Source: an uncultured Alphaproteobacteria bacterium
GTDB lineage: Bacteria; Pseudomonadota; Alphaproteobacteria; Rs-D84
Direction: 5' to 3'
Assembly (NCBI GenBank): GCA_963931495.1
Contig: OZ007020.1
Coordinates: 660,001-692,000 of the forward strand
Length of the DNA stretch: 32,000 nucleotides
The stretch's first letter is position 1, and every line of letters starts with the position of its first letter. Under the pieces are notes generated by a model that was given only the letters and a program-made list of their open reading frames with translations, was not told where the DNA came from and made no database searches. Below are positions 2,488 through 29,100 of this stretch, piece by piece. The position numbers and the translations under genes are program-made.

Positions 2488-2667
2488 TGTTTATTCCCCC
2501 CATATGTTTTGTTAAACAAAATACCGCCGTGATTAAGGGCGGTTGGAGGCTCAAAGCTATTAACAGTAATAGTGTTGCTTATTTGTATATTCGCAACCCT
2601 CCAACCCATGTTGGAGTGTTTCTGTTAAGAGGTTTTGAGACCCCGCATCGGTAATCGGCCAATGCAA
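2488..2667 (-). promoter_or_regulatory. Structured leader or small RNA upstream of HTH paralog A, with mutually exclusive helices and an intrinsic terminator (attenuator-like)
   Basis: On the minus-strand RNA, CUCCAAC (2616-2610) or CCUCCAACC (2549-2541) can each pair with GGUUGGAGG (2606-2598). The second of these shares 3 nt with terminator arm ACCGCC (2543-2538), which pairs with GGCGGU (2528-2523) and is followed by AUUUUGUUU. The TSS is inferred from the promoter at 2700-2673. Confidence 0.45.
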
Positions 2668-2672
2668 GGCAT

Positions 2673-2700
2673 ATTATATCATATCTGAAACAGAATGCAA
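2673..2700 (-). promoter_or_regulatory. Sigma70-type promoter (TTGCAT-N16-TATAAT) driving the leader and HTH paralog A
   Basis: On the minus strand TTGCAT lies at 2700-2695 and TATAAT at 2678-2673. Homology between the two repeat copies starts essentially at the predicted TSS. Confidence 0.5.
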
Positions 2701-5924: not shown

Positions 5925-5932
5925 TTAAAAAC

Positions 5933-5960
5933 TTGCATTTGCCACTAGAAATATTATAAT
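5933..5960 (+). promoter_or_regulatory. Sigma70-type promoter for ssrA (TTGCAT-N16-TATAAT)
   Basis: TTGCAT lies at 5933-5938 and TATAAT at 5955-5960. The predicted TSS near 5967 would give an acceptor piece of about 81 nt. Confidence 0.55.
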
Positions 5961-5966
5961 TATCCA

Positions 5967-6380
5967 TGTCGCATGTGCGATGATGATTCTGAATCCGTTG
6001 CGGAATAGTCGTTTTGGACTGGGGGGCGGTACCCCACAGCTCCACCATTTTAAGATTCAGAAAAATGATTATAAATATACTGACTGGCGCGGATTGTTTT
6101 CAGTACGTCAGGCGTGTGTTTATAATCATTTTTATGGGGCTGACATAGTTTCGACAGGCGCAGTAAAGGCAAATCGGGTGAATCCGACATGGCGTCGTTA
6201 AAAGCCGAATAAAAACTGAATGGCGATAGAATCGCTGCGAACGACAATGTTCGCCTTGCAATGGCTGCCTAAATTGGCGTTTGGATGTAATCGGCAATTG
6301 TTGATTATGTCCGTTTAGCCTATTGCGGGGCCCCTGGGGGTGCCCGGCAACAGAAACCCCCAGATTGATAATTTTTACAA
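5967..6380 (+). ncRNA. ssrA: tmRNA, circularly permuted two-piece type (acceptor piece to 6047, intervening segment 6048-6135, coding piece from 6136)
   Basis: The T-arm is UGGGG-GGCGGUA-CCCCA (6020-6036), followed by CAGCUCC-A-CCA ending at 6047. GGGGCUG at 6136 is complementary to CAGCUCC and includes a G3:U pair (alanine identity), and GUUUCGAC follows. The tag ORF at 6234-6272 encodes (A)ANDNVRLAMAA-stop. The 3' boundary is approximate. Confidence 0.85.
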
Positions 6381-10874: not shown

Positions 10875-10903
10875 AAAAACGGGGATTATACCCCGTTTTT
10901 TTT
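10875..10903. terminator. Bidirectional intrinsic terminator shared by the tRNA and HTH paralog B
   Basis: A5-CGGGG-ATTATA-CCCCG-T8. The TAA of the minus-strand HTH gene (10902-10904) overlaps the T-tract. Confidence 0.8.
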
Positions 10904-11132
10904 AATGTTTACGCTTTGTATTATGTCGTGCAGCCAGCATCACCATGCCATGATATGCGATTTTTTCCAATACTGATTCTGGAATTAATCGTTTGCCACT
11001 TTCGTATCGGGTCAAATCACGACGTGATATCCCCATAATTCGGGACATTTCATGACGTTTTATATGCGCACATTTACGTGCACGACGTATTATTTGACCA
11101 TAGTATGAATTATCAACCAATACAACAGACAT
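10902..11132 (-). CDS. Small XRE/Cro-type helix-turn-helix protein, 76 aa (paralog B)
   Basis: It differs from paralog A at 3 of 76 residues (A9S, V67A, Y76H). Confidence 0.7.
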   Translation of the reverse strand: MSVVLVDNSYYGQIIRRARKCAHIKRHEMSRIMGISRRDLTRYESGKRLIPESVLEKIAYHGMVMLAARHNTKRKH

Positions 11133-11312
11133 TGTTTATTTCCCCCATATGTTTTGTTAAACAAAATACCGCCGTGATTAAGGGCGGTTGGAGGCTAGAA
11201 ACTATTCAAACGGATAGTGTTGCTTATTTGTATATTCGCAACCCTCCAACCCATGTTGGAGTGTTTCTGTTAAGAGGTTTTGAGACCCCGCATCGGTAAT
11301 CAGCCAATGCAA
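11133..11312 (-). promoter_or_regulatory. Structured leader or small RNA, copy B (same helices as 2488..2667, different hairpin loop)
   Basis: All four attenuator segments and the terminator are identical to copy A. The hairpin at 11202-11217 has a different loop sequence. Confidence 0.45.
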
Positions 11313-11419
11313 GGCGTATTGTTGCATATATTCAGCAAAAATTCCAGTAATAAAAAATTATTCTTTTTTTGTAAATAATGTGGTTGCCCTGGGGGCGATT
11401 TTTTTGCTAATGTCGTGGC

Positions 11420-23177: not shown

Positions 23178-26100
23178 ATGGGAAAAAAGCGCTGTTTTCT
23201 CAAGTTTTTTACACTGTTTGTGGGAGTGTTTGTTGCCGGCAATGCAATGGCGGCATATGACTGTCCGAATGTACGAAAATACACATCGTGCAACAGTGGG
23301 TATTATATGACAGGTGGTGTGACGACTGGGAACGACTGTCTGTCATGTACTAGTGTCAGCGCGACGGATTTGTCAGCTGCATGTGACCGAGACCCGACAA
23401 GCACAGAACTGTCAAATGCGCATGCCGCATCGGGTACAATCAGTGACGCAAGCAAGGCCTGTACTGGGAATCATACCGGTGGTGCGGGCGGTACGAACGG
23501 CAGCAGTGCATGTACAGGGTGCAGTTCGTATGGCGATTGTACTGGTGGAAAATTAACAATTAGCACATGCGCGGCAGATTACTATCATGACGCCGATACC
23601 AACAAGTGCCTGGCGTGCAGCGATTTAGGCTATACATCATCTGCGTCTGGCAATACTGGTGGCGCCGATGTATGTTATAAGTCATGTAGCAAATCTTGTA
23701 CACAATCTTGCACTATATCTGGCGCAGCGTCGTGTACGTATGGCACCAAAACAACGTCTGGGACACAATATTACGGGGGTGATTGTGATGCGGAGGCTCC
23801 TGGTAATTGTCCGATAAACAGCTGGTCTTGTAAAACTGATTATTATCATACCACCAGTGGCTGTTCAGCTTGTACGGGTGTTTCTGCAAATGGTGATATT
23901 CTGGAAACAACAGAGATAACCAATGGTAAGCGTGTTGAAACATGTACCGGAAATCATACCGGTGGTGCGGGCGGTACGGACGACAGCAGTGCATGTACAG
24001 GGTGCAGCGCATCGGTCATATCTTGTGAGTGTGACACCGGATACCATTCCGAAGGCGATGGTGCCGCATGCACGTGCGTGCGGGATTGCAGCACGTCCAA
24101 GGCATGCAGCGACGATTTTGCAGGTTATTCGGGCACATATAACGAATGCACACAGAATCAAGAAACTGAATGCTATAAATCGTGTTCGGTCGCGTGCAGT
24201 GGTAATGCAACGTGCCCATCAAACGCAACATGTACATATGACACAACCAAGACATATTCCGGCACACAGTATTATGGCGGCAGTTGCGATGCCACCGCCG
24301 GTACGTGTCCGGTGGAATCAGTGACGTGTAATGCCGGATATTACAAGAATCCCGGCGGCACGTGTTCAAAATGTGGTGGGAATCAATATTATTGTCCGGG
24401 TGATAACAAGCGTTATGGCGTGTCATCTGGGTATTATTCAACTGGTGGGGATTCAACAACGCGCACTGGGCAAGCGCAATGTGGTGGAAATGAATATTAT
24501 TGCGTTTCTGGGGTGCGTTATAACGTGTCATCTGGGTATTATTCAACCGGTGGGACCGAAACAACGCGCACTGGGCAAGCGGAATGTACCAGCGGAACAT
24601 ATTGTGTTTCTGGTGAGAAATACAGTTGCAGTTCGTTGTCTGGTGGTGCAAAACCCACCGGTGGAGAGTACAGTTCAGCGGCCAAGTCAACGGCCAGCAC
24701 AGCATGCAAGTACAAGGCACCAAACCCATCGGTACCAACAAACTGTTCATCAATAGACAGTAATACGATAACATATACCGGCAGTGCATGGCCAACGGTG
24801 ACATATTCGGTTACCGCCAAGGCCGGGGCACGTATATCACAAAATAACGTGGCCAGCCCAACATGTTCGCTGTGCGCGGCTGGAACATATCAGCAAAATA
24901 ACAACAGCACCGCGACGTCATGCAGAGTGTGCAGCGGCAACACATATGCACAAAAGACTGGCGCGGAATCGTGTGCTTCGTGCCCATCGGGATACACTAT
25001 CACGGGGACCGCGGCCAGTAACCATGATAACAAGAACGATTGCAAAATAACATGTTCCGCCGGTACAGTTGTGGCCACCGCGGATAAAACGTGTTCAACC
25101 CCATCCGGCAGTTGGTATTCATCGCAACACACGGTGTCGGCGGGATCAACATCTGGATCAAACAAGGCCAGTTGTGTGTCTGGATATGCAACGCCAAGCA
25201 CGACAACAAAAACAGACCATGATTCATATACTGATTGCAGAATAACATGTTCGGCCGGTACCCAGGTTGCCGCCGCCAATGCAAAGTGTACAACACCGAA
25301 TACCAATAACTGGTACACGAATTCGCATACCGTGACCCAGGGATCAACGTCTGGATCAAATGTCAAGGCGTGCGATACAGCGGACGGGTATGTAAACAGT
25401 GGCAGTACCACAGCAAATCACGCAGGATCAGCATCTTGCAAGGTGACATGCGCCAACGGTACATATGTAAAAACCGCCAATGCCGCATGTGAAGCAGTCG
25501 GCAGTGGATATTACCGTGAATCGCACGTTGTCGCATATGGCAGTACCAGTACACGAAATCAATGCAACACGGGATACGGCAATTCGCCGGCGGGTGCATA
25601 CCGACCCCAAGATTGCTATATGAATGTCAGTGGCGGGTATTTTGTTGAAGATGCTGGTGACGCAACCGCAACCAAGTGTGATGCCGGATACGCACGCGCA
25701 GCCCATACGGTTAATTACGGTTCCGTGTCATCGTGTAATATTTGTAAAGGCGCAACATGGTCGCACGCCGGTGCCGCCACATGTTCAAACTGTCCAACGG
25801 GTTATACATATAACACAACCAGTGGCAAAACAGATAATACGCAATGCCAGATAAGCGTGCCGGGTGGTAAATATGTCGGAACAGTTGGCGCTCAAGGCAG
25901 CACACTGGGGACATGTGTCGCCGGAACATCCAAGGCCACGCATATCGTGAATTATGGTTCTTTGTCTTCTTGCCCGGTGTGCGGAACCAACCAATATTCT
26001 GATGCGGGGGCCGCAAAGTGTATCGCATGTGATTCAGACTATGCAAACAGCGGAACATCTGCGTCCAGTCACGCCGGCGTTACGTCGTGCAAAGTTACCT

Positions 26101-29100
26101 GTTCCCCAGGAACACGCGTGGTTAATCCCAATGAACCATGTACAGTGCCGTCTGACAACACGTGGTATACACCAAATGAACATGTTGTTTCACAAACCAA
26201 GGTCAGTCCATATGAAACATGTCCGGGTGGTTATACAACGCGTGGAACAAATGCGACATCGCACGACCAGAAAACAGACTGTCAAATCAATTGTGCAGCC
26301 GGTACCCAGGTGGCCAGCCCTGATGCCCGATGCACAACACCAAATGAAGAAAACTGGTATACAGATCCGCATATTGTACGCGCAACAAAAACAACTGAAG
26401 ACGAAGGATTTCTGTTTGCGTGCTTGTCGGCAAATGGATATGTAAACGATGGCACGGTTGCGTCAAATCACGCAACAATCCGTTCGTGCATCGTAACGTG
26501 TCCAGACACAACATATGTCGCCGAATCAGAAGGCAAATGTATAACCATCGGAACTGGTTATTATCGCGCAGAACATACCGTGCGGCAAACAGAAACCAGT
26601 GAAAGCGAAGGCACTCCGCGTAATTTATGTCCCGGCCGGTATACTGACGGTGAACCAGTGGCCATAGAAGATGACTGTATCAGTTTCTGTGTCAGCAGTG
26701 ACGTAGACAATTCTACGTCTGTATCGGGCGAAATAAACTATGCATGGGCAAAATATGGTATTGATGATGAACGCACAATATTTACATGCCAGGCGACGTC
26801 TTGTTTGGCCGACTATTACCTGTTGGCTGGCAACAAAGGCAGTCCGAATGGATTGGCATCGTGTCCGGCGTGCGTCAGATACGGCACATGCGCCGGTGGT
26901 ACAGATTGGTTCGTGTGTAACCATGGGTATCACTATTCCGACGAAAATTATGACGTTGATACGATATGCGATCCCGATCCGTATGAAATCGTACTGAACA
27001 AAAACGGCGGATCTGGTATGGTGAATGGTGTTGACGACGCAGCAAATGCAACACAAATCTGTTACCATGGCGTTGTTTGCGATTTGCCGCCACGCAACAG
27101 TACGGAATTCCTGTTTGACCTTACCCGTGGTGATTCTTGGGGCTTTACCGGATGGGGGTATTCACCAACGTGTGACACCGGATTCTTCCAGGCATCTGTT
27201 AACGCACCGGGAACTTTGTACGCGTGCTGGATGCGCCATACGGTACAATGCGAAATTGGTGAATTCTATAATGCCGGCAAGTTTGAAGAATGTCCGTCTG
27301 GATATTACTGTACAGGCGACGGGTCATCACCGGTGGATGAAATTGGGTGCCGTACAATCTGTCCGGCGGGGGCATCTGGGTCTGATTTGGGTGCAACAGA
27401 TAACAAACAATGTTACTATACATGCCCAGACAAACTGTTGACCGGCGGTACCGCAACAAAGAACGAACAACATGTGTACTATGACGGCGCAATGTATCCA
27501 AAGTGTACGTACAACGTAACATGCGATGCGGGGTATGTCGCATATGGCGGTGGTACAGATGCCGCAACATGCTTGAAATGTGCCGATGGGCAATATTGCC
27601 CGGGTGGCAATGACCCAAGCGCCGTTGAAGAATGTCCCCCGGGTTCGTACTGTCCGGATGGCGTGATTCATGAATGTCCAAATGGCGGTCTGTCGGCCCA
27701 AGGTGCCAAGTATATAACAGACTGTTACAAAACAGGATTGGCGTATGTCGCAACGCATGGCGAAGGTACCCAGACATGCTATTACGATGATTCGCTGGGG
27801 ACATACAGTGCGAACTGTACAAACAAGATAATCAATATCTGTGACGCAGGTTATTGGTTGAAAACAGCATTGGTCACCAATCCAGACTGTGACCCGGTTG
27901 AAGTTGGGTATTACAGCGAAGGCACTGGTATAACACGCGAACAGTGCCCGGCATCTGGACTGACGGATGACAGAACATCAACAAAAATCCAAGACTGTTA
28001 CCAAAATGGCGTACGGTACATCGCCCAACATGGCGAAGGAACCCAGCGGTGTTATTACACCAGTGGGGCCGGAACCGGCGCGGTATACAGCAGCAACTGT
28101 GACACCAAAAAGATAGATGAATGTGATGGTGGTTACTGGCTGGTGGATGTTGATGATATTGAATGTTCTGCGGTGGACAAGAACTATTACAGTAACGAAG
28201 GCGAACTGGAACGGCATGCGTGTCCGGCCGATGGACTGACCGGGACAACGACCGCGGTTACAGTGTCCGAATGCTATAAAGAACACCTGCCCTATCCAGA
28301 TGCAGAACATGGCGAAGCGTATTACACATGTTCGCACACCAGTGGACTGGATGTGAATGCGGTATACGATACAAAATGTGGTGCACCAACGTTTACAAAG
28401 TGTGATGGCGGATACTACTTTGATGTATCGGCGCGGGTAAATGACTGTATAAAGGTTGGATACGGTTATTACAGTGTTGAAGATGACCTGGATCGTGATC
28501 CGTGCCCACGTGAAGGTAAAACACTGACCGAAATCAGCGCGTCCGTCACACAATGCTATCGCGAAGATATGTATTGCCCAATCATATGGAATGGCGAACA
28601 GACTGGTGATGGATATCAAACATGTAACTATGACGAAGAAGACGCGGAATATACCGGTTTCTGTCAGACGTGCTATGTGCAAGAATGTGACGAAACATAT
28701 GCACAATATGGCGATACTATGTGCATTATGTGTCCGGAAAATCACGTGTGTCATGATAAAATCCAGGAAACATGTTCTGCAATGACGGGTGGTAAATACG
28801 AATTCTCGGACATTGGAACGATGGATGTCGCAATGTGTTATAAAACATGTGATGTTGATATCGCAGGGCATGCCGCCGCAATGACTGGTCGTGACTATTA
28901 CGATTATCCAGATACGTGCGAAATTATCCGCTGTCAACCTGGATACACACTGCAAGACGGCGTATGTGAACCATGCCCAGCCGGCAGTTACTGTGACGGA
29001 ACAGTGACGCCAATCTTGCCGGGCGATGATATCAAGTCTTGTGCAGATTTGCCGGGCGATGGCGAATGGAAGTATTCTGACGAAGGTTCAGATGATCCAA

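Follow-up and report, generated by a model that had tools for sequence, protein, structure and literature searches.

A structured leader precedes a small XRE gene

The DNA considered here is a 32,000-nucleotide (nt) stretch of contig OZ007020.1 from an uncultured alphaproteobacterium of the Rs-D84 lineage (assembly GCA_963931495.1, positions 660,001 to 692,000), hereafter called the window. On its minus strand, a gene encoding a 76-amino-acid (aa) XRE/HTH_3 protein (ATG at 2487-2485, stop at 2257) is preceded by a leader (copy 1, 2513-2668) predicted to be transcribed as an RNA of ~150 nt. The original prediction took this region for an attenuator in which three segments and a terminator pair alternatively, and speculated that a ribosome on a short open reading frame (ORF) upstream of segment 1 sets the switch. 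Checking the sequence placed segments 1, 2 and 3, the terminator, the start codon and the mini-ORF exactly where that prediction had put them. Our comparisons indicated that the attenuation topology is right, that the proposed trigger is wrong and that the element is part of a large uncatalogued family with an Xcc1-like core.

The promoter (2673-2700) is made of a -35 box, TTGCAT (2700-2695), a 16-nt spacer with a TG and a -10 box, TATAAT (2678-2673), as first described. The promoter scan listed it as TTTGCA-17-TATAAT with an upstream TG and 10/12 matches. The copy 1 transcript is predicted to start near 2666. Among 118 homologues of the leader, a TAnn[AT]T box was found within 30 nt upstream in 96, and at a fixed 3-4 nt before position 1 of the covariance model described below in 60, in agreement with a minus-strand RNA that starts just past the -10 box. 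At the rpmH-linked copy the -10 box also lies inside the repeated unit.

Read 5' to 3', the RNA would begin with P0 (2645-2665), a 7-base-pair (bp) 5'-terminal hairpin of GCAUUGG (2665-2659) and CCGAUGC (2651-2645). The Pa hairpin (2629-2644) follows; it pairs strand a (GGGG, 2644-2641) with a' (CCUC, 2632-2629) and carries b (CUCAAA, 2639-2634) in its loop. Both a and b have alternative partners in the RNAalifold consensus and the minimum free energy (MFE) structure: a pairs there with the CCUC of segment 3 and b with b'. Further downstream are c (UUAACAG, 2622-2628), whose partner is c' (CUGUUAA, 2566-2560), and segment 1, the anti-antiterminator strand (CUCCAAC, 2610-2616), whose partner is 2605-2599. 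Segment 2 (2598-2606; GGTTGGAGG in DNA, GGUUGGAGG in RNA) forms the 5' strand of helix P1 and can pair with either segment 1 or segment 3. Two internal hairpins come next: P2 (2575-2596), in which UUGC and GCAA enclose the conserved loop GAAUAUACAAAUAA, and P3 (2557-2572), a pairing of CUAUUA with UAAUAG whose apex (2566-2560) is c'. P3 is the patch that differs most between the two leader copies of the window.

The 3' part of the leader holds the competing elements. The b' stretch, (C)UUUGAG (2550-2556, with UUUGAG at 2555-2550), links P3 to P1 as a junction strand in the read-through fold; in the terminating fold it is the partner of b. Segment 3 (2541-2549; CCTCCAACC in DNA, CCUCCAACC in RNA) is the 3' strand of P1 and the antiterminator; it contains CCUCC, which resembles an anti-Shine-Dalgarno sequence, and its final 3 nt double as the first nucleotides of the terminator stem. 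The intrinsic terminator (2514-2543) consists of ACCGCC (2543-2538), a 9-nt loop, GGCGGU (2528-2523) and then AUUUUGUUU in the RNA (ATTTTGTTT in the DNA). The terminator scan did not list it, only because the loop of 9 nt is longer than the 8 nt that the scan allows. A Shine-Dalgarno (SD) sequence, GGGGGG, is located at 2501-2496, and the ATG of the XRE gene lies about 36 nt past the terminator stem (35 nt between), a gap too short for a good separate promoter. Folding of the 180-nt leader gave z = -4.27, and 0/200 shuffled sequences were as stable. P0, Pa, the long-range pairings b:b' and c:c', P2 and P3 had all been overlooked in the original prediction.

Both alternative folds covary in a large leader family

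Homologues were sought with a pattern derived from segments 2 and 3 among the species representatives of GTDB. This leader defines a structured-RNA family with at least 119 stretches, nearly all from metagenome-assembled genomes (MAGs) of Ca. Enterousia or assigned to 'uncultured Alphaproteobacteria' or 'Rickettsiales', sampled from rumen, gut and termites; at least 8 leader copies came from a single genome. A covariance model was built from 28 leaders, and 118 copies from 100 sources were collected. The model recognised both copies in the window with 163 bits (E ~1e-41). Judged from these sequence searches, the family appears to be large and uncatalogued, and it is absent from Rfam 15.

The two folds were evaluated on different alignments. 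Given a MAFFT alignment that had not been fitted to any structure, RNAalifold yielded the terminating fold unprompted, with 37 pairs of which 18 showed compensatory changes; it comprised P0, P2, the 1:2 hairpin, c:c', the terminator and a long helix in which a and b are joined to b' and the CCUC of segment 3. In the unfitted alignment, 92.6% of the cells of this fold were paired and 20 pairs had changes on both sides. The covariation was 0.352, compared with 0.159 for shuffled alignments (0/500) and at most 0.065 for slid controls. Every pair of the long-range helices had both-side changes (6/6 for b:b' and 6/6 for c:c'). Compensatory changes were also present there in P2, in basal P3 and in part of P0, and Pa showed one-sided changes only. 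Across the 118 sequences, b:b' was 91% paired over its four-pair core.

The read-through fold was scored on the 118-sequence alignment fitted to that same fold, so its values are biased in its favour: 98.1% paired, 24/28 pairs compensatory and a covariation of 0.469 versus 0.150 (0/500). All pairs of P0 (7/7, ~98% of cells paired), Pa (4/4, 91.5%) and P2 (4/4, 98.6%) were compensatory in the fitted alignment, as were the basal pairs of P3 (4/4, 99.1%), the apical pairs of P3 being weak. P1 was 99.9% paired, with compensatory variants at 5/9 pairs that included G-C to U-A and G-C to A-U swaps. The terminator stem was 92% paired with 3 compensatory pairs, and the three pairs shared by P1 and the terminator were present in 106-116 of the 118 copies. 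For segment 1, 90-96% of the cells were paired; its changes were mostly C to U, which retained a G-U pair.

The topology originally proposed, with a 1:2 hairpin, a 2:3 helix and a terminator that shares 3 nt with segment 3, was kept in more than 90% of the 118 copies. Segments 1, 2 and 3 changed together in the rare variants of loci L016, L105 and L053. The three segments read CUCCUGAC, GGUCAGGAGG and CCUCCUGACC in L016, and CACCCCUGAC, GGUCGGGGUG and CACCCCGACC in L105. Copies found with the covariance model added the P1 variants GGUUGGAGU / ACUCCAACC, GGUUGGAGA / UCUCCAACC, GACCAGGAGA / UCUCCUGGCC and GGAUUGGAG / CUCCAAUCC, and a further one, GGUCGGGGUG / CGCCCCGACC, was accompanied by a segment 1 reading CCCGAC. 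Most copies were collected with a pattern that fixes segments 2 and 3, so that variation in P1 and in the 1:2 hairpin could show up only among copies picked up by the model itself; a pattern leaving both free is, for example, GGAGGG-N4-6-GAATATATTGAATAA.

The sequences of b and c are private to each copy, and their partners are found within the same molecule, not elsewhere. An earlier test of b:b', based on an ungapped 8-mer with G-U pairs allowed and 125 nt of AT-rich upstream sequence, did not discriminate between own and other partners (7.3 versus 6.8 pairs), and was replaced by duplex energies computed on delimited regions. With these, the duplex between the 5' domain and P3 plus b' of the same leader reached -18.2 kcal/mol, compared with -9.5 +/- 3.7 kcal/mol for non-cognate combinations, and 0/2000 permutations matched this value. 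Strains of the window's own species have swapped entire pairings: b:b' is either CUCAAA:UUUGAG or CUAGAAA:UUUCUAG, and c:c' is UUAACAG:CUGUUAA, UUAAAGG:CCUUUAA or UUCAAAC:GUUUGAA. The many conserved G-U pairs identify the functional molecule as an RNA made from the minus strand. Collectively, the alignments show that both alternative folds are backed by covariation, that nearly every segment has two alternative partners and that the pattern did not arise by chance.

Energetics and model of the switch

Fold energies were calculated with a nested model that ignores pseudoknots. For copy 1 truncated at the end of segment 3, the terminating and read-through folds had energies of -42.5 and -36.7 kcal/mol, respectively; through the U-tract these values became -52.3 and -43.1 kcal/mol. 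Across 86 leaders, the terminating fold was the more stable one in 99%, by a mean margin of 10.5 kcal/mol, and the design therefore looks 'off unless something stabilises P1'. From these calculations we infer that the terminating fold would be the default.

We consider it rather probable that the leader is a transcription attenuator acting in cis through two mutually exclusive global folds, so that termination and read-through would both take place at the leader. In the terminating fold, segment 1 would pair with segment 2, and a, b and c would pair with c', b' and the CCUC of segment 3, producing a long interrupted helix around the 1:2 hairpin and P2. This helix would free AACC-GCC and allow the intrinsic terminator to be completed. 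In the read-through fold, a and a' would close Pa, P3 would form and segment 2 would pair with segment 3 as the 9-bp helix P1. By closing an Xcc1-like three-way junction of P1, P2 and P3, this helix would remove 3 of the 5-6 base pairs of the terminator; RNA polymerase could then enter the XRE gene, with the SD free. A translating ribosome would not be the trigger; a factor that acts by stabilising the junction, or by tying up segment 1 or the 5' domain, would be, and a small ligand, a protein and an RNA are all candidates.

Several observations weigh against this model. Beyond the bias of the fitted alignment mentioned above, the covariation in P1 and in the 1:2 hairpin rests on ~8 independently found variants. 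Pa together with b:b' has, in the predicted structure, the geometry of a classical H-type pseudoknot in which b' abuts segment 3, and because of this b:b', and perhaps c:c', could coexist with P1. If these helices coexisted with P1 as pseudoknots, they would form a scaffold common to both states; the two states would then be nearly equal in energy, with the long-range helices outside the switch. Segments 1-3 and the P2 loop are near-invariant, beyond what pairing needs, and this conservation may point to a factor acting in trans. The gene context, made of XRE regulators and surface proteins, hints at no ligand. Finally, copies in locus L109 that have their own promoter and terminator and no downstream gene would be a better fit for a free-standing small RNA.

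Genomic distribution and gene context

Ca. Enterousia, of the order Rs-D84, has genomes of less than 1 Mb and lives in animal guts (PMC12306168). Across the family, about 9 T in 18 nt span the end of the model, the start codon lies at a median of 21 nt past it, and 100/118 copies have an SD and a start codon behind them. The element was originally described as lying upstream of an XRE gene, which is true of copy 1 and is not a rule for the family: among the 100 copies with a recognisable downstream gene, 40 precede an XRE gene and 60 another one. The non-XRE genes include cysteine-rich and repeat proteins, mostly without Pfam domains, and 44/60 encode N-termini that resemble signal peptides. 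The genes behind the leaders are XRE regulators and secreted or cysteine-rich proteins, with no metabolic theme. Leaders in front of non-XRE genes usually have an extra hairpin between c and segment 1.

Used as a single-sequence query, the XRE protein retrieved its own cluster only, and its relatives were reached by an exhaustive HMMER search. They are proteins of 72-81 aa from small-genome alphaproteobacterial MAGs, with the consensus MxxxLVDxxYYG...ARK...YExGKxLIPE. At every XRE locus fetched, the gene was located among housekeeping genes behind a 250-430-nt spacer holding the leader, which was kept even where protein identity had fallen to 35-50%. Neighbours of the leader copies included dnaE/tRNA-Met, rpmH/gyrA, pnp/rpsO and prfA. 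The -35 region of XRE-type loci (L017, L031, L112 and L143, for example), ~35 nt upstream of the leader, is often a palindrome, ATTTGCAAAT, and in copy 1 the sequence TGCAATTGTTTGCA overlaps the -35 box. This palindrome could be an operator for the XRE protein, or just the palindromic hexamer TTGCAA.

Three tandem leaders were observed within 660 nt in L109 (2334-2990, minus strand). Each of the first two comes with a -10 box and a terminator of its own and is followed by another leader without an intervening ORF, and the third precedes a gene for a 195-aa signal-peptide protein; the arrangement recalls the five tandem Xcc1 homologues of Xylella. In two GC-rich Alphaproteobacteria (L052 and L120), the search pattern was matched on both strands by a GC-rich, fully palindromic repeat, GGTTGGAGGGAGGGGC...GCCCCTCCCTCCAACC, which resembles repetitive extragenic palindromes (REP), is unrelated to the leader and was left out of the family.

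The core of the leader resembles sRNA-Xcc1

No Rfam family was found in the leader region at gathering thresholds. The original prediction had recognised no known riboswitch, leader or sRNA family in the element; nevertheless, the 2:3 helix and the two internal hairpins matched the full length of sRNA-Xcc1 (RF02221) below threshold, with 34.2 and 34.6 bits for the two window copies against a gathering score of 53 (E ~5e-4 in the small search space of 1-kb scans). In a 41-kb scan for E-values this weak signal was gone. Relatives scored 34.9-38.5 bits against the same model, and 0/15 related loci passed the gathering score. As a positive control, the genuine Xcc1 of E. coli O157:H7 EDL933 scored 69.1 bits. 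It was located by a 100-kb Rfam scan at NZ_CP008957.1 ~1394619-1394707, minus strand (L148 1620-1708), since the coordinates from the literature correspond to the hok/sok locus in the current assembly.

The window copies align to positions 1-87 of the Xcc1 model, which cover P1 (the 2:3 helix), P2 with an AUACAA motif, P3 and the tail. Shared features are a 9-bp closing helix of the form GGNNGGNGG / CCNCCNNCC, a three-way junction in which P1 encloses P2 and P3 (99-100% paired for P1-P3 in the 118 leaders), an AAUA(C/U)A motif in the P2 loop, the P3 hairpin and a U-rich junction before the 3' strand. Leader variants with P1 reading GGUCGGGGUG / CACCCCGACC are nearly equal to P1 of E. coli. In addition, the E. 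coli element has a 3' hairpin, CCGCCAG / CUGGCGG, that overlaps the last 2-3 nt of P1 as the terminator does in the leader; unlike the canonical terminator of the leader family, it has no U-tract. In E. coli, 40 nt separate this copy from the start codon of a downstream gene for a phage antirepressor (Ant), an arrangement of sequences which suggests that Xcc1 is a leader element there too.

The differences are substantial. The leader has an additional 5' domain of ~60-90 nt (P0, Pa, b, c, sometimes a further hairpin, and segment 1). No such domain was seen by eye at the E. coli Xcc1 locus; the one resemblance there, a CACCCGA ~55 nt upstream, looks like chance. The leaders are chromosomal, present in multiple copies in Rs-D84-type Alphaproteobacteria and located beside housekeeping genes, whereas Xcc1 is carried by mobile elements (integron cassettes, transposons, plasmids, prophages). 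Xcc1 RNAs are stable untranslated species of ~88-100 nt in Xanthomonas, as determined by rapid amplification of cDNA ends (RACE) and Northern blotting, and their 5' end is the start of P1 (PMC2996969); the leader, by contrast, is predicted from its conserved -10 box to start ~60 nt upstream of P1. Xcc1 RNA also accumulates in E. coli EDL933, as seen by RNA-seq (PMC5331693). Xylella has five tandem homologues, and Xcc1 also occurs there beside c4 and isrK (PMC12189769). Xcc1 is found upstream of symE in Xanthomonas integron cassettes (10.1101/2025.06.18.660453), and upstream of an ORF6N gene in APSE phages. The literature treats it as a small RNA (sRNA) acting in trans, on APSE phages as elsewhere, and not as an attenuator. 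Owing to the score below 53, the large extra domain and the different genomic setting, the leader was not filed in RF02221; on sequence comparison, it is best described as Xcc1-like in its core without being a member.

Comparison with other regulatory RNAs

Like the classical attenuators (trp, his, pyrBI), the leader has a 2:3 pairing that excludes an intrinsic terminator and a 1:2 pairing that excludes 2:3. It differs from them in having no conserved leader peptide, SD or regulatory codons, in its much larger structure and in its second layer of long-range alternative pairings; elsewhere, hits of the Trp_leader model did not rise above chance level. ON-riboswitches of the adenine pbuE type share with the leader a three-way junction, a P1 whose 3' strand is common to the 5' arm of the terminator, near-invariant loop and junction nucleotides and, as predicted here, a terminating default state. 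The leader departs from these in its dedicated anti-P1 strand, its covarying 5' clamp and a gene context that points to no ligand, and none of the riboswitch families of Rfam matched it even at E up to 10.

A T-box mechanism was rejected, as the T-box model gave no hit at E up to 10 in 1-kb scans of both copies. An integron attC site was rejected, since the inverted core motifs do not follow the order of such a site. The small overlapping ORFs were rejected as protein-coding, given that indels do not come in threes and the helices covary.

The c4 antisense RNA (RF01695) likewise gave no hit at E up to 10 for either copy. The comparison with c4 of P1/P7, reportedly described by Citron and Schuster in 1990 and by Hartmann et al. 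in 1995, nevertheless reveals likenesses: a structured RNA is co-transcribed upstream of a small regulatory gene, and two short complementary stretches that differ between relatives match their own partners. In the leader, however, b' and c' find their partners further upstream within the one molecule, not over a downstream ribosome-binding site. As a lead taken from c4 RNA, P1 with the following NCC might form a tRNA-acceptor-like site for RNase P. Reviews of RNase P carry c4 antisense RNA among their terms.

Alternative explanations

The leader could instead be primarily a small-RNA gene of the Xcc1 type, whose terminated RNA of ~150 nt would act in trans, or through its copy-specific stretches in the manner of c4. 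Expression of the XRE gene by leakage through the terminator would then be secondary, and a dual function with cis attenuation is possible. The accumulation of Xcc1 RNAs as stable untranslated species (PMC2996969, PMC5331693), the two complete leaders without an ORF in L109, the five tandem Xcc1 of Xylella (PMC12189769), the terminating fold as predicted default and the private b and c sequences are all consistent with this explanation. It nevertheless appears unlikely to us, as the SD and start codon follow 100/118 copies at a tight distance, the partners of b and c are inside the same molecule and inspection of the leader sequences found no copy-specific second target near the ribosome-binding site; moreover, a plain sRNA gene would have no use for a conserved segment 1 or for a P1 that overlaps the terminator so exactly. 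Control could also be mainly translational, the CCUCC(A) of segment 3 masking the SD (UGGGGG, 2502-2497) unless held in P1, and the hairpin past segment 3 being structural rather than a terminator. Although the full-length MFE structures of both copies do pair CCUCCA with the SD, and an overlapping 3' hairpin of this kind, lacking a U-tract, is present at the Xcc1 locus of E. coli, the hairpin of the leader is followed by a U-rich run. CCUCC fits any SD, so this pairing is beyond covariation testing, and masking would add to control by termination and not replace it. We regard a mainly translational mechanism as improbable.

The two remaining explanations have far less to recommend them. It is barely conceivable that a ribosome ending the 7-codon mini-ORF (ATG CGG GGT CTC AAA ACC TCT TAA, 2648-2625), with its CGG codon read by tRNA-Arg(CCG), occludes segment 1. 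The mini-ORF does end 8 nt before segment 1, but it has no SD, its ATG is absent in 53/118 copies and the corresponding peptides, 1-50 aa long, conserve neither the stop nor the frame. The link between CGG and the tRNA is coincidental: CGG belongs to the 3' strand of P0 and the GGGG of Pa, and ATGCGGGG, made of the P0 3' strand and the Pa 5' strand, varies as AUGUGGGG or GUGUGAGG together with those helices. Other copies, furthermore, lie beside tRNA-Met, rpmH, pnp/rpsO and other genes. That the locus is a repeat at the DNA level with no functional RNA, such as the end of a mobile element, an att site or a REP-like palindrome, is very improbable. The unit of leader and XRE gene is indeed dispersed at three or more loci, two of them beside tRNA genes, copy 1 has a duplicated tRNA-Arg 3' end (54 nt) at its flank and assemblies break inside the leader. 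However, the many conserved G-U pairs would read as A-C in DNA or on the opposite strand, the helices covary while their sequences drift, the promoter, terminator, SD and ATG keep a fixed order and no terminal inverted repeats or target-site duplications bound the unit.

Implications

The host lineage has very few regulators, and the leader precedes genes for surface proteins, the likeliest mediators of contact with the host or partners, as well as tiny HTH genes. A covariation signature for both folds of a switch is uncommon and makes the mechanism directly testable. For sRNA-Xcc1, this leads to the hypothesis that the closing helix may compete with the downstream hairpin and thereby control the next gene. 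More speculatively, and with considerable doubt on our part, the leader might represent a new orphan riboswitch-like class, an RNA of ~150 nt that toggles between two complete, covarying folds and whose Xcc1-like junction senses a signal and co-ordinates a regulon of surface-protein and XRE genes in uncultured gut symbionts with genomes of less than 1 Mb; by extension, the widespread sRNA-Xcc1 of integrons and prophages might be the antiterminator or sensor core of a cis device placed before toxin, antirepressor and HTH genes rather than a conventional trans-acting sRNA.

Copy 2 appears to be a recombinant

The second leader of the window (copy 2, 11158-11313, minus strand) adjoins tRNA-Met and has an XRE paralogue downstream (10902-11132), whose ORF is intact. 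The repeat of leader and gene spans 10900-11315; copy 2 is ~97% identical to copy 1, the differences being clustered in the P3 patch. The 5' half of copy 2 is of type 1 (b CUCAAA, c UUAACAG) and its 3' half of type 2 (c' GUUUGAA, b' UUUCUAG), and its long-range helices are consequently mismatched. In agreement with this, the duplex energy with its own partner was -3.8 kcal/mol, ranking 87/119, compared with -12.2 kcal/mol and rank 2 for copy 1. Other strains have matched b/c sets at this locus (L002 and L008), and copy 2 looks like a recent recombinant, a chimera between copies. To the end of segment 3, its terminating and read-through folds had energies of -34.0 and -35.8 kcal/mol, respectively, and copy 2 is predicted to lean towards read-through. 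A search for a consensus promoter upstream of copy 2 found none, the promoter being degraded.

Neighbouring features

Scanning the window with the covariance model gave no third copy, not even ahead of the cysteine-rich repeat genes at 23-27 kb. Long ORF territory at 23460-27653 contains several diverged direct repeats, each of 27-82 nt, and these are probably genes for repeat-rich secreted proteins like those that bear leaders elsewhere. On the plus strand, the complement of the 1:2 hairpin was flagged as terminator-like in both copies (2599-2616 and 11244-11261; CTCCAACCCATGTTGGAG then TGTTTCTGTT). This call is probably incidental, as no plus-strand gene ends there.

Downstream of the copy 1 gene, the last 20 nt of tRNA-Arg(CCG) and its terminator are duplicated over 54 nt with 98% identity (2030-2083 and 2204-2257). 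The duplicate, 174 nt downstream, abuts the XRE stop codon. It looks like the att-type scar of an integration of which only ~120 nt are left between the repeats. In related strains, this terminator sequence is also present behind the XRE gene of the rpmH locus. A gene for a two-piece (permuted) alphaproteobacterial tmRNA was also detected in the window, at 5929-6364 (158.6 bits).

Four contigs from four samples, all with the XRE protein P0041 (L019-L022), stop within the leader terminator, 51 nt short of the XRE start codon. Short-read assembly of these genomes evidently breaks at the multi-copy leader, and knowing it should thus help in finishing their MAGs.

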